A DNA stretch of 64,000 nt from positions 1,344,001 through 1,408,000 of the forward strand of contig OZ245003.1 in NCBI GenBank assembly GCA_965223425.1, written 5' to 3'. The notes below the pieces were generated by a model that saw only the letters and a list, made by a program, of their open reading frames with translations, was not told the DNA's origin and made no database searches. Position numbers and translations under genes: made by a program. Origin of the DNA: Nitrosopumilus sp. (GTDB lineage: Archaea > Thermoproteota > Nitrososphaeria > Nitrososphaerales > Nitrosopumilaceae). Below, one piece after another: positions 9,642 through 64,000 of the stretch. Within the stretch, counting starts at the first letter, position 1. Each line of letters opens with the position of its first letter.

Positions 9642-9649
9642 GGAAATCT

Positions 9650-11000: not shown

Positions 11001-11054
11001 GGTCTGGGTGCTGTCTTGCCCAATATTATGTTGTTTTGGGCTGATAGATTTATA

Positions 11055-11082
11055 ATGTTTCTAAATTCGAGTTTAGAAATAT
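11055..11082. promoter_or_regulatory. 28-bp palindrome ATGTTTCTAAA-TTCGAG-TTTAGAAATAT (copy 2)
   Basis: One mismatch to 5158-5185. Confidence 0.6.
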
Positions 11083-11275
11083 ATGTATCATAATGCGTCA
11101 GGGCCACTGGGATCAAAAACATTGCAACAAAAACACGATGATCTCTTCTGCAGCTTATGACAAGCGCTCTATCTCATCAGATCAAATGGATGATTCCTAC
11201 TCTGCCATGGGCAGTTCTGAAAATGAACATGATGGTAAACTTTACAGGATCTCAAGACGGGTTTACACTAGTCTC

Positions 11276-12022
11276 TCAAAATCTTTTTTGTGAAGCACAT
11301 CTTACATGAATCCAATTTGAGTATCTGTCTTGCGCAACTCTGTCTTTACCTGCTGTTATTTTGCGTTTACATATTTTACACACGCTGCTGAACTTTGCCA
11401 TTATTCCTCCATATTGCCGGCTGTATTTGTTATTGTAGTTATTTCTATAACCGTTGCTATAATTACTGTGGCTGTTATCATAACTCTTGCTATGGCTGTC
11501 ATTGTAATCATCTTCATCGTCTACGACATCTGTCAAAGTGTGTGCAAACGAACTTCCTGACATCATGTCCCAATCCATGTCAATATACTCTGGTTTGCTT
11601 AAGATATTCTCTATGTGAAAGACAGCAATCGGTAGGCGTATGTCTGATAGTGTCTTGTATTGATTGTCTGAAAATATTCCCAGCCCCGTCTTTACTTCTG
11701 CCCAGCAGAAATTCTTGGGATGCTGGATTTGTGAAATATCAGCTTGTTCTATCTTACATGCAAGATAATCAAACACAAAACTTGGATTGTGAGAGGAATG
11801 GTTGGATGGTTTGGATATTTGGATAATTTCCGGTCTTATGTGCTTTGGAATGTGGACACGAATCCTCTCAAAACCCATCTTAAAAACAACAGAACCGAGG
11901 TCTTTGCAACCGTATAGATTTTCAAGCGAGCAATATGCCCAACCCCTCTGTGAGCATAGCTCCTTGTAGTATGTCTCACCAAGAGCACCTTTAAGTGATT
12001 TGGTAATTTTTGGGTGTGTCAT
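11276..12022 (-). CDS. Putative PD-(D/E)XK nuclease with C-terminal CxxC...HxxC zinc-binding tail
   Basis: KGALGE, FVFDYL, WAEVKTG; CKIC...HVRC. Confidence 0.65.
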   Translation of the reverse strand: MTHPKITKSLKGALGETYYKELCSQRGWAYCSLENLYGCKDLGSVVFKMGFERIRVHIPKHIRPEIIQISKPSNHSSHNPSFVFDYLACKIEQADISQIQHPKNFCWAEVKTGLGIFSDNQYKTLSDIRLPIAVFHIENILSKPEYIDMDWDMMSGSSFAHTLTDVVDDEDDYNDSHSKSYDNSHSNYSNGYRNNYNNKYSRQYGGIMAKFSSVCKICKRKITAGKDRVAQDRYSNWIHVRCASQKRF

Positions 12023-12100
12023 GTACTATTGGTATCATTGTATCTAAAAATTGTTTCTTGGTGAACCTTTCTTCATACTGCACATTATGGTTATAATATT

Positions 12101-13289
12101 AGACCTGATCTGTAATTACTAACAAAACCTGACGTTTCACCAAACTGATTCCTTGTTACGTCATGGTATCACAACAAAATCTCGCGTCTTCAGCTTGTAG
12201 TTGATCAGGCCGCAGATTATGGCATTGATGCAGTCATACCTGCACAGTCTGTTCCTAAACTTGTCCCTCATTATGCCGAATTTCTTGATCCTTGAGATGA
12301 CATGCTCATCGGTACCCTTGCTCTGGACAGCTCCCGGTTGAATTCCTTCTGCGCATCATCAAGCTTGCCGCCCCTTGGCCTCCTGTGCGGGATCAACACG
12401 TCAAGCTCCGGATAGTCCTTCCGTATCCCCTGATATCCAAGATCCACAAGGATTTTCAGATCTCTTGAAAGTTTTGGGCACTTGCTTGAAGACAGAATAG
12501 TCATGCCTGCCTCCAGCGAGTGCGGCGTCCTGTGCATAATCATGCCGTCTGCGTTTACAACGCACTGTGTCTTGACCGTATGCATCTTCTTTTTGCCCGA
12601 ATAGTGTGTTTTTCTCCTGGACTTGTTCTTGAGCCTTGGAATCTGCTGCTCTGATGCGTCAATGACTGCGTGCAGCCCCGGAAAGGCGCATGCCAGCTCC
12701 CGAATGTCTGATATCTGTCTGGTCTCTGCAAGCTTTTTGTCAGGCAGTGACAGTGCAGACCTTATGGCAGGCTCCATGTATCGTATGCCGGTGCTGACAT
12801 TTGACTGGCTCAGGTCAAAAAGCAGGCTCAGGGGACCCTGTGTGACGTGTGTCCTGTAGTGGATCAGTGCCATCAGGATTCTGTCCCTGCGGCAGTGTTT
12901 GAACCTGCGCCCTGCGCCGATGTCTCGGATTCTGTTATTCCTGTAGAGGCGCTTTTCCTCCGTTATCAGCTAAGCGAAATGTAAACAGAATATTCCTTTT
13001 GTTTTGTTATTAAACATAATTTGAGTCACATTCCATTGTTCTATTCCTATTTTTTGTCCGATTTTTAGTACATTTCGCTTAGCTGATTATCTTATATTGT
13101 GACTTTATCTCCGGGCACAGATCATAAAACTGCTCGGGGGTAACTCCCGTCATGGACAGGAATAATTTTGGTTTTTTTGCCAGCTTTTTGTGGTTTAACA
13201 TGACATGCATGGCATTTTGCCTGTTTTGGATCTTGTTGAGAACAAATATCTGGAAAATGGTAAAATTATGTTAATAACAGATAGGGTCT
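12101..13289 (-). mobile_element. IS5-family (DDE_Tnp_4-type) element, copy 1, inactivated by frameshifts and a MITE insertion
   Basis: Ends AGACCTGATCTGTAATTA / TAATAACAGATAGGGTCT; near-identical to 27105-28172 and 43125-44193; flanks ATT/ACT do not match. Confidence 0.92.
12966..13086. mobile_element. 121-bp MITE with 18-bp TIR TCAGCTAAGCGAAATGTA and TTA target duplication
   Basis: Absent from the other two IS copies at the same position; TTA on both sides. Confidence 0.9.
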
Positions 13290-13298: not shown

Positions 13299-16200
13299 GT
13301 TTCAATCTTTGTTGTATTAGAATTTCTTTTAGACTCTATTTCGGCGGGGATTACACCTAACTCCTGTTGTTTCAATCTTTGTTGTATTAGAATTTCTTTT
13401 AGACAGACTAAAGACAATACCTATCAAGAAAAAAACAAAGTGTTTCAATCTTTGTTGTATTAGAATTTCTTTTAGACTGCCCACGTTGATGTGATGTGCC
13501 CTGTTACGGCTAGTTTCAATCTTTGTTGTATTAGAATTTCTTTTAGACCTAGGTATATGGAATTGTTACGAAAATATGATTCCTATGTTTCAATCTTTGT
13601 TGTATTAGAATTTCTTTTAGACTGAATAAGTAGAGTTTATATATTATCCTGAAAATAGTTTCAATCTTTGTTGTATTAGAATTTCTTTTAGACTCATTCA
13701 TACTCCATTGACTTCGTTCGCTTCCACTGTTTCAATCTTTGTTGTATTAGAATTTCTTTTAGACTGTGATAGTATCACAATCCTGACGATCTGTGATACG
13801 TTTCAATCTTTGTTGTATTAGAATTTCTTTTAGACTATGTTACGGTTCTTGCCTCGGTATCGCGCAGAAGTTTCAATCTTTGTTGTATTAGAATTTCTTT
13901 TAGACCGAAAAAATCCAAAATATGAGGGGACCCTATAATGTGTTTCAATCTTTGTTGTATTAGAATTTCTTTTAGACGGGAAGGTTACAGACAGACTAGA
14001 CAAATATTTGAAGTTTCAATCTTTGTTGTATTAGAATTTCTTTTAGACTTACCTTCAAGCTCAACACCTCAACACGCTTTTGTGAGTTTCAATCTTTGTT
14101 GTATTAGAATTTCTTTTAGACGGTGCTGTAGAGCTTATTCAGGAATGGAGTAACGAGTTTCAATCTTTGTTGTATTAGAATTTCTTTTAGACAGACTATT
14201 TTAGGTCAGTTTACAGCAAATGACATGTTTCAATCTTTGTTGTATTAGAATTTCTTTTAGACTTCTATCAAACACCGTTCCCTCTCTCTCAAGATTGTTT
14301 CAATCTTTGTTGTATTAGAATTTCTTTTAGACTATGCGAGGATTTATAACCTCGACCTTAATTATTAAGTTTCAATCTTTGTTGTATTAGAATTTCTTTT
14401 AGACTCAGTCATGGTTCAATATTGTAGACTTGATACTAGTTTCAATCTTTGTTGTATTAGAATTTCTTTTAGACCACACATTGCATATTAACCTTTCAAA
14501 CGATAACTGTTTCAATCTTTGTTGTATTAGAATTTCTTTTAGACAAAACCTATTTTGTAACTTTACATTTTAGGATATTTCGTTTCAATCTTTGTTGTAT
14601 TAGAATTTCTTTTAGACATAGTCGTAGACTATATTAAGTCAGCGGGGGGGGGGTGTTTCAATCTTTGTTGTATTAGAATTTCTTTTAGACAGTCAAGTAT
14701 CGTTGTCTCTGATGAATCAAGTGAAAGTTTCAATCTTTGTTGTATTAGAATTTCTTTTAGACTGCGTTGTTTGTTGGGTTTGGAGCAGCGCTTAGTTTGT
14801 TTCAATCTTTGTTGTATTAGAATTTCTTTTAGACATCATCTGAAATAAATTGAGTTCTATGACTGTGAATGTTTCAATCTTTGTTGTATTAGAATTTCTT
14901 TTAGACATAAAGGAACATCAGGAGATATACAACCAGAAAAAAGTTTCAATCTTTGTTGTATTAGAATTTCTTTTAGACGGAGGACAAGGAGGACGATCTT
15001 AACTCAGTCCTCCGGTTTCAATCTTTGTTGTATTAGAATTTCTTTTAGACTTTCTGAGAAGTATCTTAGCAGGGTCAGAAAGAAGTTTCAATCTTTGTTG
15101 TATTAGAATTTCTTTTAGACTATGATAGTGTGAACGAAAGAGTTACCAGAGTAAAGTTTCAATCTTTGTTGTATTAGAATTTCTTTTAGACCAAGTGTTC
15201 TGCCGGACTGTTCGTTGAACATGAGGTGTTTCAATCTTTGTTGTATTAGAATTTCTTTTAGACACATTATCAACGCCCCAACTGCCCAACACTACGTTCA
15301 GTTTCAATCTTTGTTGTATTAGAATTTCTTTTAGACCTGATATGCCGACAGAACATCCCTTGTGAATCCGTGTTTCAATCTTTGTTGTATTAGAATTTCT
15401 TTTAGACAAAATTCGGATCTGACAACAACAAACCGCTGTCATAGTTTCAATCTTTGTTGTATTAGAATTTCTTTTAGACTCTAAGGTTACCGTCTGTCTC
15501 ATCAAATCCCCAGTGTTTCAATCTTTGTTGTATTAGAATTTCTTTTAGACTGGCTCACGCCAGAGGCAATGACGTCATATCTGATGTTTCAATCTTTGTT
15601 GTATTAGAATTTCTTTTAGACTGATCAGTTTCCTTTTTAGTGTCTGGATGTCCCCATGTTTCAATCTTTGTTGTATTAGAATTTCTTTTAGACTAGAACC
15701 TATTTGCTAGACGTCATTGATGACGATATGTTTCAATCTTTGTTGTATTAGAATTTCTTTTAGACCCACCAGGAGGAGGTTTTGACGTAACGGGGCTATG
15801 TTTCAATCTTTGTTGTATTAGAATTTCTTTTAGACCAAAGGGGGGGGGATAGCCCGATTGTGGCGCTCTGTTTCAATCTTTGTTGTATTAGAATTTCTTT
15901 TAGACCGTCACCCGTGGCCGTCAGGATTGTATCTGTCTTGTTGGTTTCAATCTTTGTTGTATTAGAATTTCTTTTAGACAAAAAATCCAAGATGATCTAA
16001 TTTTGTCAAAGTTACGGTTTCAATCTTTGTTGTATTAGAATTTCTTTTAGACATCCAGTTCTAGTCTTAGCTGCTGTTTGTCATTGCGTTTCAATCTTTG
16101 TTGTATTAGAATTTCTTTTAGACTTACCTTTACAGTTACAATTTCATTGTCCAGTGAAAAGTTTCAATCTTTGTTGTATTAGAATTTCTTTTAGACATTC

Positions 16201-50748: not shown

Positions 50749-51067
50749 TTAAACCATCAGAAGACCGTTCTTTTTCTTATTTTGACAATCATCTTGGCTC
50801 TGTGTGATCCTCGAGACCCAAAACATGAATTTTCTCCGAATTGAAGTTTTGTGGTTATTGAGAATCCGTGCTTTTACTATTTCTATTTCTTTTATTCCAA
50901 ATTTGTGTTTATGTAAAACTCTAGATATCTCTTCAAGTAATTCATGCGATGTTATCAAAATAAATGTATTTGTTGTGCATTATCGCTGCTTCCAAAAGAG
51001 CTCGAGGTTTTCCACCGCCAATTATTGCACTGATGATGACATTAGTGTCTAACACTATTTGATACAT
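50749..51067 (-). pseudogene. Frameshifted PIN-domain (VapC-like) toxin
   Basis: MYQIVLDTNVIISAIIGGGKPRALL continues in another frame as ITSHELLEEISRVL. Confidence 0.8.
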
Positions 51068-51075
51068 ACGAGTTG

Positions 51076-51351
51076 TTATTGTATCGTGTGTTTTTCCTTT
51101 CTGTATTTTTGGATCTCATCTAAAACGTCTTCCTCGGAAATGTTTAGATTTTTATTAAAAGTTTTTCTAAAGATAGACTCTCTGTCTTGTTTACTGTCCG
51201 GTATCTGTAAGATCTTGATTATTCTGGTGTTTTTATTGTACACAATTTTGAATTTAATTGGAGCAGTCAACCCTATTTTTTTTCTGAATTGTTCAGGTAT
51301 TATGATCTGGCCTTCTTCTCCCATAGTTATTATTGTAAGATCCTGTGGCAT
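51076..51351 (-). CDS. AbrB/MazE-family antitoxin
   Basis: MGEEGQIIIPEQFRKKIGL. Confidence 0.85.
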   Translation of the reverse strand: MPQDLTIITMGEEGQIIIPEQFRKKIGLTAPIKFKIVYNKNTRIIKILQIPDSKQDRESIFRKTFNKNLNISEEDVLDEIQKYRKEKHTIQ

Positions 51352-51495
51352 CTTCTATTCAACAGTGTTTTATTTTCTTACTTAATAAAGACGAATCTAC
51401 CGTGAAGATTTTTTCTTAGGATTTGGACATCATATACAAGTCAGAGTCATAATGATGTGTTTTTGAAGAGCAACATATACACGCATTAAAGATGG

Positions 51496-51688
51496 GTCAA
51501 TCCCAGCAAGAATTGGTGCAATTGAAAAACAAGTTGATGATTCACTAACTAAACTTGAATCCCTTAAAAAAAGCGTACTCGAAAAAGCTTTTGAAGGTAA
51601 TCTAGCATCACAGGATCCAAATGATGAGCCAGCATCCATTCTTTTAGAAAGAATCAAACAAGAGAAATCGCTCATTCAGAAAAAATAA
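51496..51688 (+). pseudogene. hsdS: Orphan hsdS C-terminal fragment starting at a recombination-site-like palindrome
   Basis: ARIGAIEKQV...LKKSVLEKAFEGNLASQDPNDEPASILLERIKQEK. Confidence 0.85.
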
Positions 51689-51713
51689 ATTTATACTTTT
51701 TATTATGATTGTG

Positions 51714-51938
51714 TCACAATATCTTTAAAAATTCTTCTAGAGTTAATCCAGTTTGTTTTATTATGGAGCGTAACGTCCCCCTTGCTATTTCTTTGTGATT
51801 TGGCACAGTTATTCTTCTATGCGGATAATCTTTATTTCTCAATATTATGTGACTGCCTGTTTGATGATCAACATTATATCAAATTTTGTGTAATATCTTG
51901 AGTAATTCTCTTGCAGAAATAATAGGTAGTTTAGACAT
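51714..51938 (-). pseudogene. hicA: HicA toxin with in-frame TGA at codon 20
   Basis: MSKLPIISARELLKILHKI*YNVDHQTGSH...VPNHKEIARGTLRSII. Confidence 0.88.
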
Positions 51939-52143
51939 GTATCTCTACAGTTTCTTCATCAATAGAGAAAGGAATTGGTTCATTATGTTTTTTTAGACTT
52001 GTAATATATCCTGAAATGGCATCTTTGATATTGTCTATTGCCAACTCTCTTGTGTCGCCTTGAGATATACATCCAGGAAGTTCTGGAACCTCTGATACAA
52101 ACATCCCGTCCTCGTCCTGCTTTATGAATATTCTAAATTTCAT
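51931..52143 (-). CDS. hicB: HicB-family antitoxin (short form)
   Basis: VPELPGCISQGDTRELAIDNIKDAI. Confidence 0.9.
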   Translation of the reverse strand: MKFRIFIKQDEDGMFVSEVPELPGCISQGDTRELAIDNIKDAISGYITSLKKHNEPIPFSIDEETVEIHV

Positions 52144-52222
52144 ATGCTTTGTTAGATACGTTTAGTATAAAAAATTGAACCATACAAAATCATTACGAGT
52201 ATCATAAAATATGATTCATGCC

Positions 52223-53152
52223 TTAAATCTCTAGTTTAGACATGACTTTCTTAAATTCTACAAATAATTCACTTGGTGTAGGAGTAAAATAAACGCCATC
52301 AAGACCGTTTTTGTGGCCCATCAGCTTTTCTGCAATGTTATAGTTTACCGAATTGTCCAGCTTTAGTATCGTGTTGAATCTCTTTCTAAAGCCATGGTCT
52401 GCCTGGACTTCATAGCGGTTGCCACGCTTGCAACGGTCTATCTTGCTTTTGGATATGGCTCTGTATATTGCGGATCTTGCGCCACTCCATCCAAGCTGTT
52501 GTACAGATACCAGATTTTGCGTTGCAAAGACTGGCGTGTCATCATGGAATGCTTCTCCGTACTGTTGTTTGCGATAATCGTGATATGCATCAAGTGCCTT
52601 TGATGCCTGTGGTGTAAGAAATGTCCAGTATTCCTCAACATGTCCTGCATACAGTCTTACTGCCTTGCATCTGTGTGGCATCTTTTTTAGGTGTCTTATG
52701 GATAACGCATGATCAAAGATGCCGATTCGCGCGCCAGTTGATGCCAGAAAGTGAACCAATGCAGTATCCCTGAGGTTTTTTGTGTTCTTTAGCATCATGG
52801 TTATTTCATCTGTGGTGTATGACCTTAGGTTTCGGGTTTTTTGTTTTGGTGGGAACATCCTGCGTATTATGTCCCAGTTCAGATTTATCCGGTTCATTAT
52901 GCAAAAATGCCTTATTCCCTGAAATTTTGAGGGAATGGAGTTTGGGTTCGTGTTGTGCTTTAGCCTGATCAGGTAGTCCTCTACTAGTTGCTGCAGGCGT
53001 TCTTTGTCCATGTTAAGCAGCTCGGCGTTGTTCTCAAGCCCTGAAAATTTCTTGAATTCCCTGAGATGGGCTACATAGTTTCTTTTTGTATACTTTGATT
53101 TTATTCCTTCCTCAAAGAGCATTGTGCTTCTTGGCATAACGGAGCTGAGCAT
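52223..53152 (-). CDS. Tyrosine recombinase/integrase
   Basis: STGARIG, HGFRKRF, LMGH, catalytic Y in DGVYF. Confidence 0.92.
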   Translation of the reverse strand: MLSSVMPRSTMLFEEGIKSKYTKRNYVAHLREFKKFSGLENNAELLNMDKERLQQLVEDYLIRLKHNTNPNSIPSKFQGIRHFCIMNRINLNWDIIRRMFPPKQKTRNLRSYTTDEITMMLKNTKNLRDTALVHFLASTGARIGIFDHALSIRHLKKMPHRCKAVRLYAGHVEEYWTFLTPQASKALDAYHDYRKQQYGEAFHDDTPVFATQNLVSVQQLGWSGARSAIYRAISKSKIDRCKRGNRYEVQADHGFRKRFNTILKLDNSVNYNIAEKLMGHKNGLDGVYFTPTPSELFVEFKKVMSKLEI

Positions 53153-53395
53153 GTTGCATTCTTACATAGTTCTTATTTTTGCACAGGCGTTTTAGGATAT
53201 GATTTTAATTGTTTTATTTTTCTGATATTGATGTTTGATTTGTATGGGTTTTCCAGCGTTCTATCATGGTGACGTTAATTTATTGTGAATTTCACTTAAG
53301 ATCTTGTCATAATCATCTCCAAACACTTTGGATGCTTTGACTAGGCCGATTCTTGTATTATGACATGCAAAAAAACAAGATCCGCCCAATGGAGT

Positions 53396-53935
53396 TCATA
53401 TTCGTGATTCTACATCAAAAAATGCAGAATTAGTCTCCTCAATTGACTTTGCTCCTGCAATCACACCCTTGCCTGATGCAAACAACAATGCAACACAGCT
53501 ATCCTGAATTCTGTAAATCAGACCGGGGAATTGTTCTGGCTCATAGATGCTTTTGGGCAGTGTCCTAGCAAGAGTCTCTATTGGTAGTTTTTTGTTTACA
53601 TTAAACCCTGATACAATGTTTCTTACCTGTGATGTGATCTTGGCGGGTTTGGCTATCTTGTATTTTTGCAAGATTTTGCATGCTTTCTTTAACTCTTTTT
53701 TGGCCTGATCTGGGCTCTTTGTTCCCACTGAAATCAGTTTTCCGGTTCTAAAGACTGTTACCCTGCCTGTCATAGAATCATCTTTTACATAACCGCATCT
53801 ATACAGTTCTAAATTTGAGCTAAGATGCTTGTATTTGTTAAAGGAGGATATGTTTATTTCTTGTTCAAGGTCTGCAGTACATACTGTATTTTGAATCTTT
53901 ATTTCTGATCGTAGTTTGATGCTTGATGTTTTCAA
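53396..53935 (-). CDS. tbp: TATA-box-binding protein (divergent paralog)
   Basis: IQNTVCTADL, VFRTGKLISVG, YEPEQFPGLIYR, LLFASGK. Confidence 0.93.
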   Translation of the reverse strand: MKTSSIKLRSEIKIQNTVCTADLEQEINISSFNKYKHLSSNLELYRCGYVKDDSMTGRVTVFRTGKLISVGTKSPDQAKKELKKACKILQKYKIAKPAKITSQVRNIVSGFNVNKKLPIETLARTLPKSIYEPEQFPGLIYRIQDSCVALLFASGKGVIAGAKSIEETNSAFFDVESRI

Positions 53936-53976
53936 TTATGATTGTTTTTGTATTTGTGGGTTTTAAGAATGCTTAA

Positions 53977-54388
53977 ATGATCCTCAATGTTTGTAAAATC
54001 ACAAAATTGTCAGACAACCATGCTACACGAAATATGGGACTGGCATATGTTTTTTCGATGTTGTCACGTAAAGGATGGAAATATGAAGTTGTAAAACAAG
54101 GCAGAGCAGAATTGCATCGTATAAAGGGAAATAATATTGAACGCGTTATAAAAATACGGACATTGTCAAAAGAAGCGCCGGTTCCTTTTCCTCAAGGACT
54201 AGATGTTCTTGATCAAATTCACTACCTTGTTATTTGTCATAGCCTCAAATCACAGCCAAAGTTAGTAGTACTGGAACCTAAAACAGTAAAAAATTATTTA
54301 CAAGGACTCGATAAATGAAGATGTATACTGGTTGCAAAATCCCGATTACATCAAACACGATCTCTCTTTTGAGAAGGTTTTTGGATGA
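53977..54388 (+). pseudogene. Hypothetical protein, probably frameshifted in the A-tract near 54290
   Basis: Alternative frame continues IIYKDSINEDVYWLQ...FEKVFG* up to hsdS. Confidence 0.5.
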
Positions 54389-54394
54389 GTTATT

Positions 54395-55807
54395 TTGATA
54401 GAAGAAAATCTTCCAAAGGGATGGGCGGAGATAATCTTGGATGATTATGTGTTTATAGCCGGAAGAATAGGGTGGAAAGGACTGAAAAGCAGTGAATATA
54501 CAGATACAGGACCATTTCTTTTAGCTGTTAAAGATATTGATGATAATGGTCAGATAAACTATAATGGAGTAAGAAATCATATTTCTGAATTTAGATATGA
54601 TGAGTCACCCGAAATCAAATTATGTAAAGATGATATTTTGATCACAAAGGATGGAACTATAGGAAAAATAGGATATGTGAATGATTTGCCCAGTCCCACT
54701 ACAGTAAATTCCTCTATTTTGGTTGTTCGACCAGCAGAATTGATGTTTCCAAAATACTTGTTTCACTATTTCAGATCCCCCCTCTTTCAACATATTGTAA
54801 AAGAGAAAATTAAGGGCATTTCAATTCCTCACTTATTTCAATATGACATAAAAAAATTCCACTTGCGAATAGCTCCGTCCAATGAACAAAAACGTATCGT
54901 CTCCAAAATCGAATCAATCTTCGCACAGATTGATGCTGCTAAGGAAAGACTAGAGACTCTTGCATCACAGACAAAGTTGGCTTCGAACAGCCTTGAGATG
55001 TTAAGAAGTAGCGTGCTAAAACAGGCCTTTGAAGGAAAATTAGTGCCACAAGATCCGAATGACGAACCAGCCGAGCTTCTTTTGAAGAAAATTAACAAGG
55101 ATTCCAAAGAAGAATTGGTTTTTGAGAATGATAATCTTCCCAAAGGATGGATAGAGACTAAATTAGAAAACTGCATAGAAATTTTAGATAGTAAACGAAT
55201 TCCAATAAACTCCAGTGAACGCAAGCAAAGACAAGGAAAAATACCCTACTATGGTTCAACAGGACAAGTTGGATGGATTAATGATTATTTGTTTAATGAA
55301 GAATTAGTGCTATTGGGAGAAGATGCAGCACCCTTTTTAGACAATTTCAAGGACAAAGCATATTTGATTTCTGGAAACAGCTGGGTAAATAACCATGCTC
55401 ATGTGTTGAAAGGTATTGCAGATTTATTGTTGAATAGTTTTCTTTGTTACTTTCTTAATCAATTTAATTATCATGATTACGTTACTGGAACAACCAGATT
55501 AAAACTAAATCAGACGCGCATGAAAATGATTCCCATTTTAATCCCCCCCATCAACGAACAAAAATGCATCGTCTCCAAAATCGAATCAATCTTTGCCGAG
55601 ATTGATGCAACCAACAAATACGTTAGTGACGCATTACGAACACTTGATATGTTAAAGCAAAGTGTTCTCAAGCAAGCCTTTGAAGGAAAACTAGTTCCAC
55701 AGGATCCTGACGACGAACCGGCAGAAATTCTACTTCAAAAAATACACCAAAAAAAGCAATTAATACAAAAAACAAAACCCAAAAGAGGAACAAAAAATGT
55801 CAAATGA
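54395..55807 (+). CDS. hsdS: Type I R-M specificity subunit (complete, two TRDs)
   Basis: LPKGW x2, EQKRIVSKIESIF, KQAFEGKLVPQDP. Confidence 0.95.
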   Translation: MIEENLPKGWAEIILDDYVFIAGRIGWKGLKSSEYTDTGPFLLAVKDIDDNGQINYNGVRNHISEFRYDESPEIKLCKDDILITKDGTIGKIGYVNDLPSPTTVNSSILVVRPAELMFPKYLFHYFRSPLFQHIVKEKIKGISIPHLFQYDIKKFHLRIAPSNEQKRIVSKIESIFAQIDAAKERLETLASQTKLASNSLEMLRSSVLKQAFEGKLVPQDPNDEPAELLLKKINKDSKEELVFENDNLPKGWIETKLENCIEILDSKRIPINSSERKQRQGKIPYYGSTGQVGWINDYLFNEELVLLGEDAAPFLDNFKDKAYLISGNSWVNNHAHVLKGIADLLLNSFLCYFLNQFNYHDYVTGTTRLKLNQTRMKMIPILIPPINEQKCIVSKIESIFAEIDATNKYVSDALRTLDMLKQSVLKQAFEGKLVPQDPDDEPAEILLQKIHQKKQLIQKTKPKRGTKNVK

Positions 55808-57281
55808 AGCTCCAATCATAGTTCAAAAATTATGGAATTTTTGTAATGTTCTAAGAGATGATGGTGTATCCTACGGTGATTATGTTCAGCAGCTGACAAA
55901 TCTATTATTTTTAAAGATGGCAGATGAGCAGACAAAACCGCCATTCAAAAAAGAATCAATCATCCCCAAAAAATATGACTGGAGTACACTTGTATCAAAG
56001 ACTGGAGATGATTTAGAAAATCATTATAGGCATGCTTTAGAGAATCTAGCTAAAGAATCAGGGTTATTGGGTGTGATTTTTAGAAAATCCCAAAACAAAA
56101 TCCAAGACCCTGCAAAGCTAGAACGACTAATCAAGCTAATTGACGGGGATTCAAAAGACAGGGGTAGAATTCTCTGGATGGGAATGGATATTGATGTAAA
56201 AGGTGAAATCTACGAAGGCCTACTAGAAAAAAATGCAGAAGATGTTAAGAGCGGTGCAGGTCAGTACTTTACACCAAGAGCGCTAATCTCTGCGATAGTT
56301 GATGTAATTGCACCAGAACCAAAAGAGACAGTAGGAGATCCTGCATGTGGTACCGGAGGATTTTTCTTATCTACACACAAACATTTGACTGAGAATTTCA
56401 ATTTAGATCCTGATCAAAAGAAATTCCTCAAAGAGAAAACTTTCAAGGGATGGGACATTGTAACTGAAGTTGTAAGATTATGTGCAATGAGCATGTATCT
56501 TCACGGTATTGGATCCACTGAAAGTCAGATTGTTGTAGGGGATTCACTGATCTCAGATCCTGGCGACAGATTTGACATTGTGATGACAAATCCTCCATTT
56601 GGAAAAAAATCAAGCACTGTAATATTTTCAGAGACAGGAAAAGCAGAACGTGAAACATTATCCTATGAGAGAGATGACTTTTGGGCAACAACATCAAACA
56701 AGCAGTTGAATTTTCTGCAGCATGTAAAGACAATACTCAAAACAAATGGAAGATGTGCTATTGTAGTTCCTGACAATGTATTGTTTGAAGGAGGTGCAGG
56801 TGAGACAGTAAGAAAAAAGATGCTAGAACAGATGAACTGTCATACTCTATTGAGATTACCTACCGGAATATTCTATGCAGGCGGAGTTAAAGCAAATGTG
56901 TTATTCTTTGATAAAAAACCAGCAAGGACAGATGGAAAAGCTTGGACTGACAAACTCTGGATTTATGACTTTAGAACAAATCAGCATTTTACCCTAAAAG
57001 AAAACCAGCTTTCCAGAGATCATCTAGATGACTTTGTAAAATGTTATAATGCAAAAAATATTTTAAAAAGAAAGGAAACAGAGAAATTCCGTGCATATTC
57101 CCATGATGATTTGATCAAAAGAGACAAGACATCATTGGATATTTTTTGGTTAAAAGATGACTCATTAGAAGATATTGAAAGTTTGCCTCCGCCTGAAATT
57201 CTGTCTGATGAAATTAAAGAAAATTTAGAATCTGCATTGGATTCAGTAAATGAACTGATTGAGAACCTAAGAGAAAAGTAA
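55797..57281 (+). CDS. hsdM: Type I R-M N6-adenine methyltransferase
   Basis: GQYFTPR, DPACGTGGF, NPPF. Confidence 0.97.
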   Translation: MSNEAPIIVQKLWNFCNVLRDDGVSYGDYVQQLTNLLFLKMADEQTKPPFKKESIIPKKYDWSTLVSKTGDDLENHYRHALENLAKESGLLGVIFRKSQNKIQDPAKLERLIKLIDGDSKDRGRILWMGMDIDVKGEIYEGLLEKNAEDVKSGAGQYFTPRALISAIVDVIAPEPKETVGDPACGTGGFFLSTHKHLTENFNLDPDQKKFLKEKTFKGWDIVTEVVRLCAMSMYLHGIGSTESQIVVGDSLISDPGDRFDIVMTNPPFGKKSSTVIFSETGKAERETLSYERDDFWATTSNKQLNFLQHVKTILKTNGRCAIVVPDNVLFEGGAGETVRKKMLEQMNCHTLLRLPTGIFYAGGVKANVLFFDKKPARTDGKAWTDKLWIYDFRTNQHFTLKENQLSRDHLDDFVKCYNAKNILKRKETEKFRAYSHDDLIKRDKTSLDIFWLKDDSLEDIESLPPPEILSDEIKENLESALDSVNELIENLREK

Positions 57282-57328
57282 TCAGTGTATTTGTCGAAAG
57301 TTTTACAAACAAGATAAATACCATCAAC

Positions 57329-60091
57329 TTGAGACAAATCTTGAATCCCGAAAACAAAGCACGTCAGGATATCGATAAAATGTTGATTGATTCAGGATGG
57401 GTTATCCAAGACTATGATGATAGAAATCTTAGTGCAGGATTGGGAGTGGCAGTTAGAGAATATCCGCTGAGCAAAGATCATGCAGATTATGTACTGTTCA
57501 TTGATTCGCAACCTGTAGGTGTGGTAGAGGCAAAAAAATACGGTTATACTTTGGGCGGCGTAGTTGAGCAATCAGAAAAATATCTAGATGGATTGCATGA
57601 AAAGTTTACCCGCGCCCCCATAAAACCCCCGTTTTCTTATGAAACAACAGGTATAGAAACCAAGTTTGCAGACAGACGTGATCCATATTATCGTTCTCGT
57701 TATGTCTTTACATTCCATCGGCCAGAATTGCTACAAGAATGGCTACAAGAAGAAAAAACCTTACGTGCAAGGCTAAAAGGCATTCCAAAATTGGATTATG
57801 AGAATTTGTGGGATTGCCAGCTAGAGGCAATAACAAATCTAGAGGATTCCTTTGCTCAAAACAAACCTCGTGCGTTAATTCAGATGGCAACAGGGTCAGG
57901 CAAGACATTTACAGCTGTTACAGCAATTTATCGATTAATCAAACACACAAAAGCAAAAAAGATTCTATTTCTAGTTGACAGATCTAATTTAGGAAAACAA
58001 GCACTGCGTGAATTTCAACAATATGCTACGCCAGATGATGGAAGAAAATTTACTGATCTGTATAATGTGCAATTATTACAATCGCATACAATTGATCCTG
58101 TCTCAAAAGTTGTAATATCCACTATTCAAAGAATGTTCTCTGTTCTAAAAAACGACAAAGAATATCAAGAAGAAAATGACGAGTTTTCATCATTTGAAGA
58201 TCCTTCTATAGATGAAACGCCTATAAATGTAAAGTATAACGCAGACATTCCAATCGGAGAGTTTGATTTTATTGTAATCGATGAATGCCACCGTTCCATT
58301 TACAACAAATGGAAGCAGGTCTTAGATTATTTTGATTCATTTCTAATTGGGTTGACTGCGACTCCTTCAAATGATACTATAGGATTTTTTAACAATAATC
58401 AAGTAATGAGGTATAATCATGAAAGAGCAGTTGTAGATGAGGTAAATGTAGGGTATCATGTATACAGGATCAAAACCAAAATTGGTGATAGCGGGGGTAA
58501 AGTTGATGCAGGACAATACGTTGAAAAACGCGATAGGCTTACACGCAAACAAGAAGCAGAATTTTTGGATAATGATTTTTTGTTTACCAAAAATGATCTA
58601 GATAGATCTATTGTTGTGAAAGACCAAATCAGGCTCATCATTCGCACTTTCAAAGAAAGGCTGTATGAGATTTTCCCAAACAGAACCAATGTTCCTAAAA
58701 CACTAATCTTTGCAAAAGATGACTCTCATGCAGAAGACATTACAGAGATAGTTCAGGAGGAATTTGGTCTTGGAAATGATTTCTGTAAAAAAATTACATA
58801 TCGTACAAAAGAAAAGCCAGAAGATTTGATCTCTAGCTTTAGAAATTCACCCATGCCAAGGATTGTAGTGACAGTGGACATGATTGCAACAGGAACTGAC
58901 ATCAAACCTCTTGAATGTATTGTCTTTATGCGAGATGTCAAAACTAAAAATTACTTTGATCAGATGAAAGGTCGTGGAACCAGAACAATAAAAGACGATG
59001 ACTTGATTGCAGTGACACCGGATGCAAAATCCAAAACTCATTTTGTTATAGTTGATGCAGTGGGGGTTTGTGAGCATTCAATGAGCGACACTCATTCTTT
59101 GCAAAAAAAACCAAATGCTTCATTTAAAGAGCTTATGAACATAGCAACTGACAAAAATGCAGATACAGAAGATATTGAAAGTTTGATCTATCGTTTGTCT
59201 AGACTGAATAAAAAATTGAGCCAAGAAGACAAAGATGAGATCGCCAATGTAAACAATGGAAATTCGCTTACAGACATTGAAAGAACATTACTTGAAGGAA
59301 TTGATTCAGACAAAAGAATAGAAAATACAAAAAAACAGTTTCACACTGATGAACCAACAAAAGAACAAATCAAAACTGTCTCAAAACAAATGATTGATGA
59401 AGCATGCAAAGTGTTTGATTCTCCAAAATTACGTAGAACTATTTTAGATATAAAAAACAAAAACGAACAAGTCATCGATGACATATCAATTGATGAGTTG
59501 ATCGAAAGTGGTTTTGTTGACAAGGTACGAGAGATTGACAAAAATACAGTCAAGAATTGGACTGAATTTATTGAAAAGAACAGAGATCAGATTGTTGCCC
59601 TTGATATTATTTACTCCAAACCGTATAGGATGAGGGAAATCACATTTTCAGACATTAAGAATCTGGCCAACGCTATTAGGAAACCTCCATACAATTTGAC
59701 ACCTGAATTACTTTGGAGCACCTATCAAAGATTAGATAAATCAAAGGTAAAAAATAGTCCTCAAAAAATGCTGACCAACTTGATATCTCTTGTGCGCTAT
59801 TCCTCCTCTAAAAAAGGGGAATTGCTCTTGCCGTTCTCAGATATATTGGATGAGAAATTTGAAAAATGGCTTGAGCAACAGGAATCCTCCGGCCGCAAGT
59901 TCACACCAGAACAAAAAGAATGGCTTGTAATGATAAAAAATACTCTTGCAAGTTCTGTCTCAATTGACATTGATGCACTAGATGATGTTCCGTTTAATAA
60001 GAAAGGTGGTAGAGTAAAGTTTTATGAAATATTTGGAGACAAATATGATAAAATATTAGAGGAACTGCAAGAAGCACTAATTAATTCATGA
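57329..60091 (+). CDS. hsdR: Type I R-M restriction subunit
   Basis: ADY...VEAK, MATGSGKT, DECHRS, LTATP, QMKGRGTR. Confidence 0.97.
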   Translation: MRQILNPENKARQDIDKMLIDSGWVIQDYDDRNLSAGLGVAVREYPLSKDHADYVLFIDSQPVGVVEAKKYGYTLGGVVEQSEKYLDGLHEKFTRAPIKPPFSYETTGIETKFADRRDPYYRSRYVFTFHRPELLQEWLQEEKTLRARLKGIPKLDYENLWDCQLEAITNLEDSFAQNKPRALIQMATGSGKTFTAVTAIYRLIKHTKAKKILFLVDRSNLGKQALREFQQYATPDDGRKFTDLYNVQLLQSHTIDPVSKVVISTIQRMFSVLKNDKEYQEENDEFSSFEDPSIDETPINVKYNADIPIGEFDFIVIDECHRSIYNKWKQVLDYFDSFLIGLTATPSNDTIGFFNNNQVMRYNHERAVVDEVNVGYHVYRIKTKIGDSGGKVDAGQYVEKRDRLTRKQEAEFLDNDFLFTKNDLDRSIVVKDQIRLIIRTFKERLYEIFPNRTNVPKTLIFAKDDSHAEDITEIVQEEFGLGNDFCKKITYRTKEKPEDLISSFRNSPMPRIVVTVDMIATGTDIKPLECIVFMRDVKTKNYFDQMKGRGTRTIKDDDLIAVTPDAKSKTHFVIVDAVGVCEHSMSDTHSLQKKPNASFKELMNIATDKNADTEDIESLIYRLSRLNKKLSQEDKDEIANVNNGNSLTDIERTLLEGIDSDKRIENTKKQFHTDEPTKEQIKTVSKQMIDEACKVFDSPKLRRTILDIKNKNEQVIDDISIDELIESGFVDKVREIDKNTVKNWTEFIEKNRDQIVALDIIYSKPYRMREITFSDIKNLANAIRKPPYNLTPELLWSTYQRLDKSKVKNSPQKMLTNLISLVRYSSSKKGELLLPFSDILDEKFEKWLEQQESSGRKFTPEQKEWLVMIKNTLASSVSIDIDALDDVPFNKKGGRVKFYEIFGDKYDKILEELQEALINS

Positions 60092-60738
60092 ATGCATTTA
60101 ACATTGATACAGCATTACAATCTTTATCCCAAATCCGTCCGATTTTTCACAACGAAGCAGATTTTCAATTTTCATTTGCATGGGAAATTCAGAAACAAAA
60201 TCCAGATTATGGTATTCGATTAGAATACAAGGTTCCTCAATTTACTAGCCGCTATACAGACATATGGATAAAAGGAGAAAATCCCATTGCAATTGAATTA
60301 AAGTACAAGCCAGTGTCAATGCAGTTACAGCATAATAAAGAAATATTTGAACTGAAAAAACATGGGGCACAAGATATTGGCAGATATGATTTTCTAAAAG
60401 ATGTTCAAAGACTGGAAGAAATTATTATGAAATACCCTGAAACTAGTGCATATGCAATCATAATAACAAACGATGAATTATACTGGAAGAATCCACAAAA
60501 ATATAATTCTGTCGATAAAGACTTTAAGATACATCAAGATCGAAACATTCAGGGTACCTTATCATGGTCATCAGAGACTGGGAAAGGTACGATGAAGGCA
60601 AGAGAAGAGCCGATAAAAATTAATGGTAGTTACAACATAAATTGGAAAAATTATTCTAACTTTGATCAAAAATATGGACAATTTAAAATGTTATGTTTGG
60701 AGATTGATTTATCGTTTCATACGCAAGCGCAATCATAA
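60088..60738 (+). CDS. Hypothetical protein, likely PD-(D/E)XK fold
   Basis: FHNEADFQF...TDIW...AIELKY...YDFLKDVQRLE. Confidence 0.65.
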   Translation: MNAFNIDTALQSLSQIRPIFHNEADFQFSFAWEIQKQNPDYGIRLEYKVPQFTSRYTDIWIKGENPIAIELKYKPVSMQLQHNKEIFELKKHGAQDIGRYDFLKDVQRLEEIIMKYPETSAYAIIITNDELYWKNPQKYNSVDKDFKIHQDRNIQGTLSWSSETGKGTMKAREEPIKINGSYNINWKNYSNFDQKYGQFKMLCLEIDLSFHTQAQS

Positions 60739-61900
60739 TCAAAAATACATATACAAAAATCAAAAAATTACTTGCGTCAATCCCGGCAAAGATTGATTCG
60801 ATTTTTGCAGTTATTTTATTTTGTTTTTCTATAGATGTTGTACTTATCTCAATTTTTGATAATATTTTTCCGGAAATATACGGTTGTCCAGAACCAGCAC
60901 TTAATTTATTTAATTTAAGATTCTTTAATTGGTATAGAAAAAATCTTAAATTTATCTCTACTTTGGGTACTAATCCAATTGAATTGTCCGTTATCCACAC
61001 TTTTCCAGAATAAGAATGAACATTTCCGCATTGTGCTCCCACACGTCCAATTATGAGAACATCTCCCTCATGATTTTCTTTATTATGGAAATCTAGGAGT
61101 CCATTCCCACCAAAAACTGGAATTTTCCCTCCACAGATCTTATTTCTTGGAAGAAATTTTCCATGTTTCGTTTCAAAAATTTTTGAAAGAATGATTTTTT
61201 CTAGTGGTTTTAATGCTTCGTCATCTAGATCTTGAGGAACGAGTCTTTCTGCAAATGCCTGCCTGAGTACGCTGTCTTTGAGAGTAGACAGGGATACCTG
61301 CCCCGATTTTAACCGGCACTGTAGATCCATCAACCTTTTCATACATGCATCAATCTGTGCGAAGATTGATTCGATTTTGGATACGATGCGTTTTTGTTCA
61401 TTTAATGGTGGAAGATTAAACCACAATTGTCGAATGGTGGTTTTTGAAATTTCCTTAAATGTAGTTCCTGTTGCTTTTTTTGTTATGATGCCTCTATTTG
61501 CCCACAGCCAATACGCTAGAAAATAATTGTAAACAGCATTTGAGCATATGAAAGATGCAAATCCCTGGTTTGTGGTTACTGGCACACCAGCTATTGAAAC
61601 AAATCCTATGCTTGCTCTTGATGTCAAAAGCACTGATCCTTGAGGAACAATCTTTGCAGAGCTTTTTTGAAGGCCGAGTTCTGTAATTTTTTCTCTAGAA
61701 TCAACAACCTCAACGATTTTATCTTTTGGAATCTCAGTGGGGGTAAACCACGATATATTTCCACCAAAATATTCTTGAATTTTTCTTGATGGTGTTCCGC
61801 CTCCTGCCAAGTCGCAGATATTTTGGATTTTTGTCCTAACCCATCCCTTTGGAAGATTCTTTTTTCCAAACTCCTCCGCAGATTCTTTAATCAAAACCAA
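60683..61900 (-). CDS. hsdS: Second, inverted hsdS with two different TRDs, lacking the conserved C-terminus (silent-cassette-like)
   Basis: LPKGW, GGGTPSR, EQKRIVSKIESIF; homology ends at FAGIDA near 60772. Confidence 0.9.
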   Translation of the reverse strand: MVLIKESAEEFGKKNLPKGWVRTKIQNICDLAGGGTPSRKIQEYFGGNISWFTPTEIPKDKIVEVVDSREKITELGLQKSSAKIVPQGSVLLTSRASIGFVSIAGVPVTTNQGFASFICSNAVYNYFLAYWLWANRGIITKKATGTTFKEISKTTIRQLWFNLPPLNEQKRIVSKIESIFAQIDACMKRLMDLQCRLKSGQVSLSTLKDSVLRQAFAERLVPQDLDDEALKPLEKIILSKIFETKHGKFLPRNKICGGKIPVFGGNGLLDFHNKENHEGDVLIIGRVGAQCGNVHSYSGKVWITDNSIGLVPKVEINLRFFLYQLKNLKLNKLSAGSGQPYISGKILSKIEISTTSIEKQNKITAKIESIFAGIDASNFLIFVYVFLIMIALAYETINQSPNITF

Positions 61901-61921
61901 TCATCAAACCTGTCCAATGAA

Positions 61922-63802
61922 CTATCTTGTATGTTTTGACAGTTTACTAAATTTTTCATATGCGTTATTGGCAGCGTCTTTGATTTTGTCTAGTGACAAT
62001 ATTTTTCCATCCATGAATGTATTGTAGAAAACTTTGATTGATATTTCGGGAGTGATACGCTGTGTGCCTGATTTATTAAACAGTACTGCAATCTCACCAT
62101 ATGTAGACATTATCACTGATGTTGGACAATTCTCTATTTGTGACATTTTTGCCGCATCTTCGAATGCATTTTCAAGTTTGATTACACATGAATTGTAATC
62201 TGATTCAAAACGACCATATTTTTTTTCGCCCAATATGGCGTATTGAAAATCGCCGTCATAAAATTCATGTCTGGTACAGTGAATGTCAGAAATACTCCAT
62301 GTTCCATTTTTTGTCACAATGCAAGACAGGGACTCAACAAACCGAGACTTTTCAGACAGCGGTGCAATAGCTATGCCTCCTTTACCATATCCAAGAATAA
62401 ATGGTTTATTGTGTTTCATGGCTAGTTTTTTTGCGTCAGAGAATGCACCAGACAACTGTATCCTTCCTTCTGAGAGAAATCCAAGTCCTCCATATTCGAT
62501 TATGCCTTTTGTCAGACAATCATATGCCCTTGGAACCATCTCATCTATAGTATAACCACTAAATGCAACCTCGTCCCAAAACTCTTCTTTGAGCATTTTT
62601 TCTATTTCTTCTTGACTAAATCTATCTTTCCAATGATCAAGTTTTTTTCTTGGAGTTATCCCACACACTGGTATGTATGGATAGCACCCCCATAGATTTG
62701 GAATTAGAACTATACTACATTCTTCATCTTTGTGTATGAAAAATGACATGTTGTGCTTTTTTGCCATGTTTGAGGCGTCTTGTAGCATGTCTTTGATCTT
62801 ATTTTTGTCCCACGAAGAATCCAGTTTGCCATATGACTTTGTAATTTGACGGCTTTCATATCTGACGCAAAATAGAGCGAACGTCTTTTTTGCTACATTC
62901 TTAATTTCATCAACACATAATATGCTACTATCCAAAAACTCGTTTGGTCGTACTGTGACAAATGAATTATCAAGTCCATGTGTATTTTTACATACTTTTA
63001 TTGCATCATAGTATTTGTTCTCTTTTTCGCTGTAACTTCTAGTCAAACCTATCGAAAACTCCTCGTTAAAAAAAGAAGACATTTTTGCTGCATCCTCAAA
63101 TGCATTTTCCAGTTTTATGATGCAATTAGTCTGTTCTGCATCAAATGCACCATATTTTCTTTCCTTACTGATGATGGCATTGGATAATTGCTCATGTAGT
63201 GACTTATCTGTTGGATTGCTAGAAAGCACATAAGAGTGCATATCTGAAACATTCCAACACCGTTTGTTATTACCAATTATGCATGCAAGCGGATCTATGA
63301 ATCTGGATATCTTAGATATTGGAGCGATTACCAATTCGTCTTTACAGTATCCCAAAACAAAGGGTTTTTTGTGCAAGTTGATCATGTTATGAGCATCAGT
63401 AAATGCATGGAATAATTTCTTTGTTATTTTATCACTATCCATGGAACCTGTCAGCTGACCATATCTCTTTATGCCGTAAACTATGCAGTCATGTACTCTT
63501 GGAACCATCTCATCTAAAGTATAACAGTTACATGCATCATCCTCAAATTCCTTTTTTAGATGTTCAATTATTTTCTCTTGGTTGTACTTTTTGATCTCCT
63601 CAGTTACTATGGGTTTTGTTACCGTACATGCAAGTATGTAGAATGGGTACGATTCAGAACGCGTAGATAGAATTATTTCATTCCAATCTATTCCCACGTA
63701 AACTGGTTCATTGTGGATTTTACACATATTTGATGCATATTCAAGCAATGAACGGAATTTAGCTTTGTTCCATGAAGAGTTGACATTACCATATGATTTC
63801 AC
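61922..63802 (-). CDS. 626-aa protein built of about six ~100-aa repeats (duplicated triplet)
   Basis: KSYG...SSW, YT(L/I)DEMVPR and IKLENAFEDAAKMS each occur twice. Confidence 0.8.
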   Translation of the reverse strand: MKSYGNVNSSWNKAKFRSLLEYASNMCKIHNEPVYVGIDWNEIILSTRSESYPFYILACTVTKPIVTEEIKKYNQEKIIEHLKKEFEDDACNCYTLDEMVPRVHDCIVYGIKRYGQLTGSMDSDKITKKLFHAFTDAHNMINLHKKPFVLGYCKDELVIAPISKISRFIDPLACIIGNNKRCWNVSDMHSYVLSSNPTDKSLHEQLSNAIISKERKYGAFDAEQTNCIIKLENAFEDAAKMSSFFNEEFSIGLTRSYSEKENKYYDAIKVCKNTHGLDNSFVTVRPNEFLDSSILCVDEIKNVAKKTFALFCVRYESRQITKSYGKLDSSWDKNKIKDMLQDASNMAKKHNMSFFIHKDEECSIVLIPNLWGCYPYIPVCGITPRKKLDHWKDRFSQEEIEKMLKEEFWDEVAFSGYTIDEMVPRAYDCLTKGIIEYGGLGFLSEGRIQLSGAFSDAKKLAMKHNKPFILGYGKGGIAIAPLSEKSRFVESLSCIVTKNGTWSISDIHCTRHEFYDGDFQYAILGEKKYGRFESDYNSCVIKLENAFEDAAKMSQIENCPTSVIMSTYGEIAVLFNKSGTQRITPEISIKVFYNTFMDGKILSLDKIKDAANNAYEKFSKLSKHTR

Positions 63803-64000
63803 AGAAAGATATTCTCTTCATGTTATTTGTATGTGTTCACAACGGGGTTCTCCCATACGAAATCGTCTCTTATCCTACTGCGGGCCATTCTCAGTGTGCT
63901 TTGCTGAATCAGGATGTTTCGGATTTGTTTTGCATCTTCCTATACTTTCTTTGCGTCAACTCATGATTCTGTGTACGGTATTCTTCCATGTTTGTTAGCA

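Follow-up and report, generated by a model that had tools for sequence, protein, structure and literature searches.

We analyzed a Type I restriction-modification (R-M) locus in a stretch of 64,000 nucleotides from Nitrosopumilus sp. (GenBank assembly GCA_965223425.1, contig OZ245003.1, positions 1,344,001 to 1,408,000). The whole stretch is referred to as the window, and coordinates are those of the window unless another locus is named. The locus contains two hsdS genes in inverted orientation around hsdM and hsdR, paired sites within the hsdS genes, and a nearby tyrosine recombinase gene. It is probably a recombinase-driven four-way hsdS inversion switch. This interpretation is based on the anatomy of the locus, its conservation in other genomes, the fold and catalytic residues of the recombinase, and the link between the recombinase clade and hsdS.

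Architecture of the hsdS locus

HsdR, HsdM, and HsdS domains are encoded in a single cluster (PF04851, PF08463, PF02384, PF12161, and PF01420), as expected for a Type I R-M system. The original prediction placed an inverted hsdS pair around hsdM-hsdR, and the open reading frames and Pfam domains agree with it. hsdS1 (54395–55807, + strand, 470 aa, with PF01420 in two stretches) overlaps with its 3′ end the start of hsdM (55797–57281, +; PF02384, E = 3e-69, and PF12161). hsdR follows (57329–60091, +; PF04851, PF08463, and PF04313), and its stop codon is overlapped by orf216 (60088–60738, +), which lies within the predicted invertible segment. hsdS2 (60683–61900, − strand, 405 aa; PF01420, E = 3e-41) closes the cluster from the opposite strand.

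According to the translations and their alignment, hsdS1 consists of a first target recognition domain (TRD1), site A, a central conserved region, a second domain (TRD2), site B, and a C-terminal tail. hsdS2 has the order TRD1′, site A′, central region, TRD2′, and site B′, followed by unrelated residues up to the stop codon. Its homology is lost right after the last site, as had been claimed, and the C-terminal conserved helix is absent. The two proteins are 28% identical overall. hsdS1 therefore appears as the complete copy and is predicted to be the expressed one, and hsdS2 would be its tail-less, silent partner. The locus has the features by which hsdS inversion systems are recognized: inverted hsdS genes in one locus, repeats inside hsdS that bracket the TRDs, one complete and one incomplete hsdS, and a linked recombinase.

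The 22-bp site is the palindrome ATCAATCT-N6-AGATTGAT. It had been reported for all four conserved regions, and it is perfect at 54913, 55585, and 61349; the fourth copy, B′ at 60776–60797, has two mismatches, and its second arm reads GGATTGAC. The two proposed spacer classes were both recovered. The sites after TRD1, A (54913–54934) and A′ (61349–61370, gene strand), have the common spacer TCGCAC, and those after TRD2, B (55585–55606, a perfect palindrome) and B′, have the common spacer TTGCCG. A and A′ are located within the arms of a 35-nt perfect inverted repeat (54902–54936 and 61347–61381), likewise as predicted, which is embedded in a 68-nt inverted repeat with 90% complementarity. The inverted repeat at B and B′ extends over 34 nt at 94% (two mismatches). 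Four site matches with at most two mismatches were found in the window, against 0.07 expected by chance, and none of 100 shuffled sequences reached four. In the whole genome of 2.64 Mb, the perfect palindrome occurs only at these three places, and a common 17-nt core occurs only at these four.

A further 19-bp inverted repeat had been noted at the 5′ ends of the hsdS genes. It was found as the perfect core of a 24-nt repeat at 92% (54402–54425 and 61840–61863), which encodes NLPKGW. We considered this repeat as a third class of crossover site and rejected it; the palindrome is absent from it, and its codons are found again ahead of TRD2. It is treated here as a probable likeness of protein motifs.

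The recombinase and its clade

Simple two-domain tyrosine recombinases act on two inverted arms around a short (6–8-bp) spacer, and the identity of the spacer governs the choice of partner at such sites. The proposed hsdS invertase of the window is a protein of 309 aa (52223–53152, − strand), which was assigned from profiles, fold, and conserved residues. Its gene ends 1243 nt from the start of hsdS1, in accordance with the predicted distance of about 1.2 kb.

In profile searches, the recombinase matched NCBIfam XerA with E = 1.8e-12 but with only 47 bits against a cut-off of 220; therefore, it is not a XerA orthologue. It also matched a PHROG integrase profile (2.4e-10). Across 29 sequences, R142, R256, H280, and Y288 do not vary, which gives the pattern R..R..H..Y, and H253 reaches at least 90% conservation. 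The reading frame is intact, and all of the conserved catalytic residues are kept. An AlphaFold2 model had a mean predicted confidence (pLDDT) of 91.1, and Foldseek matched it to XerA (5hxy, E = 1.2e-9), Cre, XerH, lambda Int, and IntI, all with a probability of 1.00. The best match among the solved structures was archaeal XerA with 17% identity. A profile search of solved structures with three recombinases gave only a weak XerA match (E = 0.0067) and is superseded by the fold search. The protein is a divergent member of the tyrosine recombinase superfamily, and its model indicates a simple two-domain, Xer/Cre-like fold that lacks an arm-binding domain.

The wider recombinase family is common. 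Matches at E up to 1e-10 were obtained in 89 of the 201 genomes from the taxonomic family, a tally that takes in three genomes flagged as unpublished. Relatives that are at least 50% identical to the window recombinase are about 300–310 aa long. They were found at 16 loci, of which 9–10 kb were inspected; nine loci contain hsdS, five do not, and two lie at contig ends. One of the relatives at a contig end has a gene for a TATA-binding protein (TBP) beside it, as the window does. In a tree of 31 rows, all 13 hsdS-adjacent recombinases fall into one clade of 19 rows with support of 100/98, and 12 distant, longer relatives (370–428 aa) fall outside it. One outgroup row (L034) is an unpublished genome, on which no claim rests. 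Among 19 distant recombinase loci that were inspected (38–46% identity by tblastn), no hsdS was found in the 1.5-kb flanks. As judged from the tree and the gene neighborhoods, the window recombinase is a member of a clade with a specific link to hsdS.

The same genome (G000) encodes two more recombinases of this clade, at C1:774453–775373 and C1:2395452–2396351, which are 65% and 54% identical to the window protein. No hsdS was found within about 10 kb of either gene. They could act in trans on hsdS sites.

Related modules and the pairing of spacers

A DNA search of 40 relatives identified the same R-M family in two genomes of the same genus (HsdM 85–86% and HsdR 79% identical), each with two inverted hsdS genes and a recombinase of 305–309 aa that is 58–61% identical to that of the window. 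We also scanned one genome per species with the 26-nt pattern GAATCAATCY-N6-RGATTGAYGC and obtained 43 stretches. Wherever both strands carried sites at a spacing of a few kb, the record was one of Nitrosopumilus sp. The 14 single pattern matches outside Nitrosopumilus and Nitrososphaerales, in other archaea and in bacteria, had no hsdS match; about 9 are expected by chance (a rough estimate).

After overlapping loci were merged, 12 modules with two hsdS genes were counted in ammonia-oxidizing archaea, most of them in Nitrosopumilus records: the window, L018, L019+L020, L068, L071, L076, L077, L078+L085, L079, L087, L090, and L104. L053 coincides with L090, so that the two entered the count once, and L078 and L085 are two short contigs of one metagenome-assembled genome (MAG), which do not show how they are oriented to each other. 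The site is also present at three places with a single hsdS, namely L066 (a fragment of about 100 aa), L075 (cut by the contig start), and L096 (a truncated hsdS, with no hsdM within 9 kb).

The spacers of partner sites are identical in 12 of 12 modules, for the pairs after TRD1 (A) and after TRD2 (B) alike. The script returned identical spacers for all 11 pairs that it compared in each class; the A pair of L018 and, among the B pairs, that of the window were lost to its peptide filter, and their spacers are identical too. Comparisons between different modules gave agreement in only 48 of 220 cases for A and 40 of 220 for B. The A spacers are TCGCAC, TCACAC, TCTCAC, and TCTCCC, and the B spacers are TTGCCG, TTGGCA, TTGACA, TTGATA, TTGGTA, and TTTCCG. 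Within a locus, an A spacer never matched a B spacer (0 of 50 comparisons), although the arms are 91% alike. At the site itself, partners have an identity of 1.00, which declines to either side. In the B pairs, it falls to 0.25–0.41 from 8 nt behind the site because one gene runs into the tail and the other does not; in each module, one hsdS is always truncated just after the second site. This pattern is expected if partners need an identical overlap while recombination between A and B, which would delete a TRD, must be avoided.

The recombinase accompanies these sites. A clade recombinase lies within 1.5 kb of hsdS in 10 of the 12 modules, and in L076 and L077 its gene is located between the two hsdS genes. 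An eleventh module, L104, starts inside a stretch that is 92% identical to the 3′ end of the L068 recombinase gene, and no recombinase was seen on the short contigs L078 and L085. The order of the genes is S-M-R-S′ in the window and L079, R-S-int-S′-M in L018, L076, and L077, and R-S followed by M-S′ in L087. Despite this variation, each module retains one tail and two site pairs. All structural parts of the proposed shufflon are thereby found again in other genomes as the model predicts, and the comparison lends the model strong, if indirect, support. In L019, three adjacent pairs of inverted repeats were also observed (2509–3172 and 13342–14001, about 640 nt in total, 89–94% complementary), which bracket about 10 kb with hsdM and one hsdS.

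In the window, general homologous recombination might also be at work, so that the locus would invert over its 35–68-nt repeats with the recombinase uninvolved. "Spontaneous" inversion was raised for invertase-negative invertons in passages of Huang et al. 2020 (PMC7672463), and the A/A′ repeat has a length at which it could conceivably serve as a substrate. However, the likeness of B and B′ covers just 34 nt with two mismatches and is elsewhere as short as the site. The arm-spacer-arm layout and the clade-specific linkage of the recombinase would be coincidences under this explanation, and we regard it as very improbable.

Codon constraint in hsdS could produce a palindrome without any switch, an objection that the original prediction had itself raised. 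A single control locus, L118 of genome G201, bears on it and speaks for the model. L118 encodes close homologs of the window enzymes (hsdR 82% and hsdM 88% identical) in a cluster hsdR-hsdS-hsdM-hsdS (5887–12784), in which both hsdS genes are complete with tails and are in direct orientation. Its genome has no recombinase match at E up to 1e-10, and none of the four conserved-region positions of L118 contains a site with two or fewer mismatches. The peptides at the four equivalent positions are KIEELFSLVD, KIEELYLKTE, KIEEEFLLVH, and IVDEEISLIE. Because L118, with neither recombinase nor inverted partner, lacks both the ESIF..ID peptide and the palindrome, these are not demanded by this HsdM family. 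From its sequence, L118 is best described as a two-specificity system with no signs of inversion.

The same recombinase clade, together with a site of the same kind, is also found with a second Type I family, in L055, L057, L061, and L062, whose HsdM proteins are 25–30% identical to that of the window. There, inverted repeats of 41–50 nt (90–94%) flank the recombinase gene or hsdM, and the site core has ATCAATYC and GAGTTGAY arms with the 6-bp spacer TGTCAG. In L068, L071, and L090, hsdM and hsdR of this second family are combined with hsdS of the site type of the window.

Proposed mechanism of inversion

Binding, strand exchange, the switching rate, and the effect on the methylome are the parts of the model that we infer. 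The 309-aa recombinase would bind the inverted arms (about G[A/C]ATCAATCY) around the 6-bp spacer, and strand exchange would be limited to sites whose spacers are identical. Because A and A′ share TCGCAC and B and B′ share TTGCCG, only A × A′ and B × B′ should recombine, and both pairs are inverted. Each event would flip a block that contains the single C-terminal tail, hsdM, hsdR, and orf216, and the flipped block would rejoin the 5′ part of the other hsdS. Consequently, one full-length HsdS would always be made beside hsdM-hsdR, while the other hsdS copy would stay tail-less and silent. The four predicted states are TRD1+TRD2 (the present one), TRD1′+TRD2, TRD1′+TRD2′, and TRD1+TRD2′. In two of the four states, the operon would be read from the side of ORF626 (61922–63802, −), a gene on the strand of hsdS2 whose end is 22 nt upstream of it. 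A clonal population would then contain four alternative specificities of methylation and restriction.

Orientation of the locus in assembled contigs

The five runs that were found to contain this DNA are stored as assembled contigs, and the contigs of four of them were mapped to the locus. The X1 contigs end at 54907–54931, 60778–60807, 61352–61376, and 61385–61414, and the X3 and X4 contigs, which come from a second study, end at A and A′. Several joints on opposite strands or with skipped segments (55153>61801, 55547>61827, 56377>61362, and others) were considered as inversions and rejected; the joined pieces are 89–93% alike or differ in depth, and they are read as hsdS genes of other organisms. 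The loose ends at 54936 (X1) and 61362 (X3) match L075, another Nitrososphaerales record, exactly, and none of the five tested loose-end strings occurs in this genome. The X1 break at 60778–60807 was also rejected as a B × B′ recombinant, since a crossover in the spacer should branch at 60784–60813. The 35-nt repeat had no match in the metagenome collection. A run of seven C residues is present in hsdS1 at 55536–55542, just 5′ of the second conserved region. One X3 contig of low depth (4.55) has an extra C in this run, which would shift the hsdS1 frame and could be a slippage variant or an assembly error.

In comparisons between genomes, no pair of clean inversion isomers was found. L071 and L090 are the same isomer, with a central block that is 99.3% identical and TRDs that are 81–91% identical. 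The block (L071 9682–14003 and L090 9797–14118) holds both B sites, hsdM, and hsdR, and the similarity suggests recent block exchange or fast TRD turnover. L068 and L104, a chromosome and a 10.6-kb contig of one MAG, have flanks that are 99.5% identical over 1743 nt on one side and 92% identical on the other. They were rejected as clean isomers because their hsdM and hsdR families differ, even though the block of truncated hsdS and TBP is at opposite ends. They look like alternative alleles of a defence island that occupy the same chromosomal site within a single population.

Evidence against the model and alternative explanations

Several observations count against an inversion switch in the window. 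No inversion was observed; the contigs break at A and A′, and their flanks are not linked across the 35-nt repeat. At B and B′, the X3 and X4 contigs span the sites in the window's own arrangement, and B′ carries two arm mismatches. The recombinase gene is on the strand opposite to hsdS1 and 1.24 kb away from it, with the TBP gene and orf113 between them, and its score with Pfam PF00589 (25.0 bits) is under the gathering cut-off of 27.1. Five of the 16 loci with a clade recombinase have no hsdS nearby, two of them being the extra copies in this genome. Most of the modules were found with a pattern that leaves the spacers free and fixes the arms; therefore, the conservation of the arms across modules is partly built into the search. 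Moreover, related genomes are non-independent samples. Finally, the locus lies in a low-GC stretch from about 51000 to 64000, and excerpts of a study of thaumarchaeal integrated elements (PMC6563490) describe such elements as often carrying Type I R-M systems and XerC/D-like integrases.

Some of these observations would be explained if the module family inverts but the window copy is frozen, its recombinase or site B′ having lost competence, with only TRD1+TRD2 expressed and hsdS2 as a relic. The mismatches at B′ and the same arrangement at B and B′ in contigs of another study are in line with a frozen copy, as is debris in the island, namely an hsdS tail remnant (51489–51680) and what the sequence suggests to be a stop-interrupted gene beside hicB. 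However, the recombinase frame is intact with all of its conserved catalytic residues, and the partners A and A′ form a perfect 35-nt repeat. The GGATTGAC arm is normal at B-type sites elsewhere, where L087 and L078/L085 have it in both partners. Because contigs drop minor variants, it also says little that they show a single arrangement. A frozen copy is unlikely, and we prefer an active inversion switch.

The hsdS tail remnant at 51489–51680 (+) combines a degenerate site with an entire C-terminal conserved tail behind it. By tblastn, it is 60% identical to residues 398–459 of hsdS1, and it appeared as the repeats D1 and D5. Its likeness to hsdS starts exactly at the degenerate site, and its tail is of the AIEKQVDDSL type, as in L018, L019, and L087, which differs from the tail of hsdS1. 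It looks like a fossil of an older recombination or replacement at a B-type site.

The low-GC stretch is an island of 13 kb (51000–64000) with about 35% G+C between flanks of 44–53%; the genome, which consists of 2.51 Mb and 0.12 Mb and carries archaeal AmoA and four TBP genes, averages 41%. AmoA and the TBP genes mark the host as an ammonia-oxidizing archaeon. As the main rival reading, the recombinase could be an integrase that integrates and excises this island as a mobile defence island, with no programmed inversion and with repeats that result from protein constraint and occasional gene conversion. Besides its composition and the precedent of the integrated elements, the island contains a toxin-antitoxin gene, a HicB-like antitoxin (51931–52143, −; PF15919, 42.1 bits with a cut-off of 27). 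Integrases of the wider family are also common in these archaea, and L068 and L104 look like alternative islands at one place. However, no tRNA gene is present in 40000–64000, and no direct repeat of at least 16 nt brackets the island, so that the attachment-site and tRNA hallmarks of an integrated element were not found. The recombinase gene is found next to hsdS genes or between two of them, in many contexts and in the company of two unrelated R-M families. In L118, where the R-M family of the window occurs with no recombinase, both the peptide and the palindrome are missing, so contact with HsdM does not demand them. Spacers that match between partners and never between A and B are also unexplained by protein constraint. 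We consider a mobile island without programmed inversion improbable, and the inversion switch is retained as the preferred explanation.

Neighboring genes of the island

Between the recombinase gene and hsdS1 are a divergent TBP paralogue (53396–53935, −; PF00352, E = 5e-35) and orf113 (53977–54318, +), which is immediately upstream of hsdS1 on the same strand. The paralogue is one of the four TBP genes of the genome and scores below the two main copies. TBP paralogues recur in or beside the modules, at L020 6012–6551, L056 1488–2006, L068 14905–15420, L079 4755–5261, and L104 6346–6861. They lie between the truncated hsdS and hsdR in L068 and L104 and between hsdR and hsdS in L020. On a more speculative reading, the travelling TBP could drive the transcription of whichever hsdS 5′ end joins the tail-hsdM-hsdR block. 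ORF626 is the last gene in the island and has an internal duplication, with copies about 940–970 nt apart (repeats D3 and D4). No family match in Pfam, NCBIfam, PADLOC, or PHROGs was found for orf113, orf216, or ORF626.

Comparison with known systems

The hsdS inversion switch is well known in bacteria and barely explored in archaea. In Mycoplasma pulmonis, two hsdS genes flank hsdM and hsdR, and in pneumococcus, hsdM and hsdR stay fixed. Excerpts of two papers present hsdS inversion systems as established in bacteria (PMC7672463 and PMC4948785). In those excerpts and in one of a third paper (PMC7394358), the pneumococcal locus SpnIII (cod/ivr), with its tyrosine recombinase PsrA/CreX, and related epigenetic invertons of bacteria resemble the window in having one expressed hsdS and silent, partial, inverted hsdS copies. 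SpnIII also has several classes of inverted repeats in the conserved regions of hsdS and a locus-linked tyrosine recombinase, and its alternative TRD pairings lead to alternative methylation specificities, as is predicted for the window. Unlike SpnIII, the window belongs to an archaeon, its recombinase forms a separate clade, and its hsdM, hsdR, and sole tail are inside the segment predicted to flip. Four variants are predicted for the window, as opposed to six for SpnIII, and a TBP paralogue travels with the archaeal module. In the hsd/HvsR system of M. pulmonis, as far as passages of PMC7672463 describe it, inverted hsdS genes are likewise recombined at short intragenic sites by a tyrosine recombinase; unlike the recombinase of the window, HvsR is encoded at a distance from the loci it targets, and surface-protein genes are among its further substrates.

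XerA, XerCD-dif, and Cre-loxP share with the window protein a two-domain fold that lacks an arm-binding domain and sites with an arm-spacer-arm layout. In contrast to these systems, the sites of the window are within coding sequence and are paired in two spacer classes, and the predicted reaction is inversion rather than dimer resolution.

The closest archaeal record is S1/S2.NmaSCMORF606P of Nitrosopumilus maritimus SCM1, which is listed in supplementary file 2 of Atack 2020 and in Table S5 of Huang 2020. As far as the supplement listings show, this locus resembles the window in being a thaumarchaeal Type I system with two hsdS genes and an inverted repeat. The listed repeat is 39 nt long at gene positions 6–45, unlike the conserved-region sites of the window, and the entry from the BLAST-based survey reads "Invertase in RM: N". 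The locus is listed only, and no discussion of it was found in the searched portions of the survey text. The widest survey of gene-altering inversions covered bacteria only (PMC9881135), a read-based survey found no inversion in six archaeal data sets (PMC5903667), a long-read survey called archaeal invertons "minimally investigated" (PMC10028968), and a passage of a 2025 review anticipates archaeal surveys (PMC11868660). We found no description of an archaeal hsdS shufflon with its recombinase in the full-text literature, a coverage that many subscription journals fall outside.

In bacteria, much of the heterogeneity in epigenetic state and phage defence arises from programmed hsdS inversions. 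The recombinase clade, the 22–26-bp site with its spacer rule, and the predicted four-way output described here make archaeal phase variation directly testable. An active switch would matter for virus-host dynamics and for the strain-level methylome diversity of ammonia oxidizers, as well as for how long-read assemblies of such genomes are to be read. More tentatively, the module may be a portable diversity generator native to ammonia-oxidizing archaea, which would have become attached to two or more unrelated Type I families and would be accompanied by a dedicated TBP; we consider this broader possibility rather doubtful at present. If it is true, no programmed DNA inversion (phase-variation) system that is defined and experimentally tractable would precede it in Archaea, and clonal populations of a globally important nitrifier would contain several methylomes and virus-resistance types.

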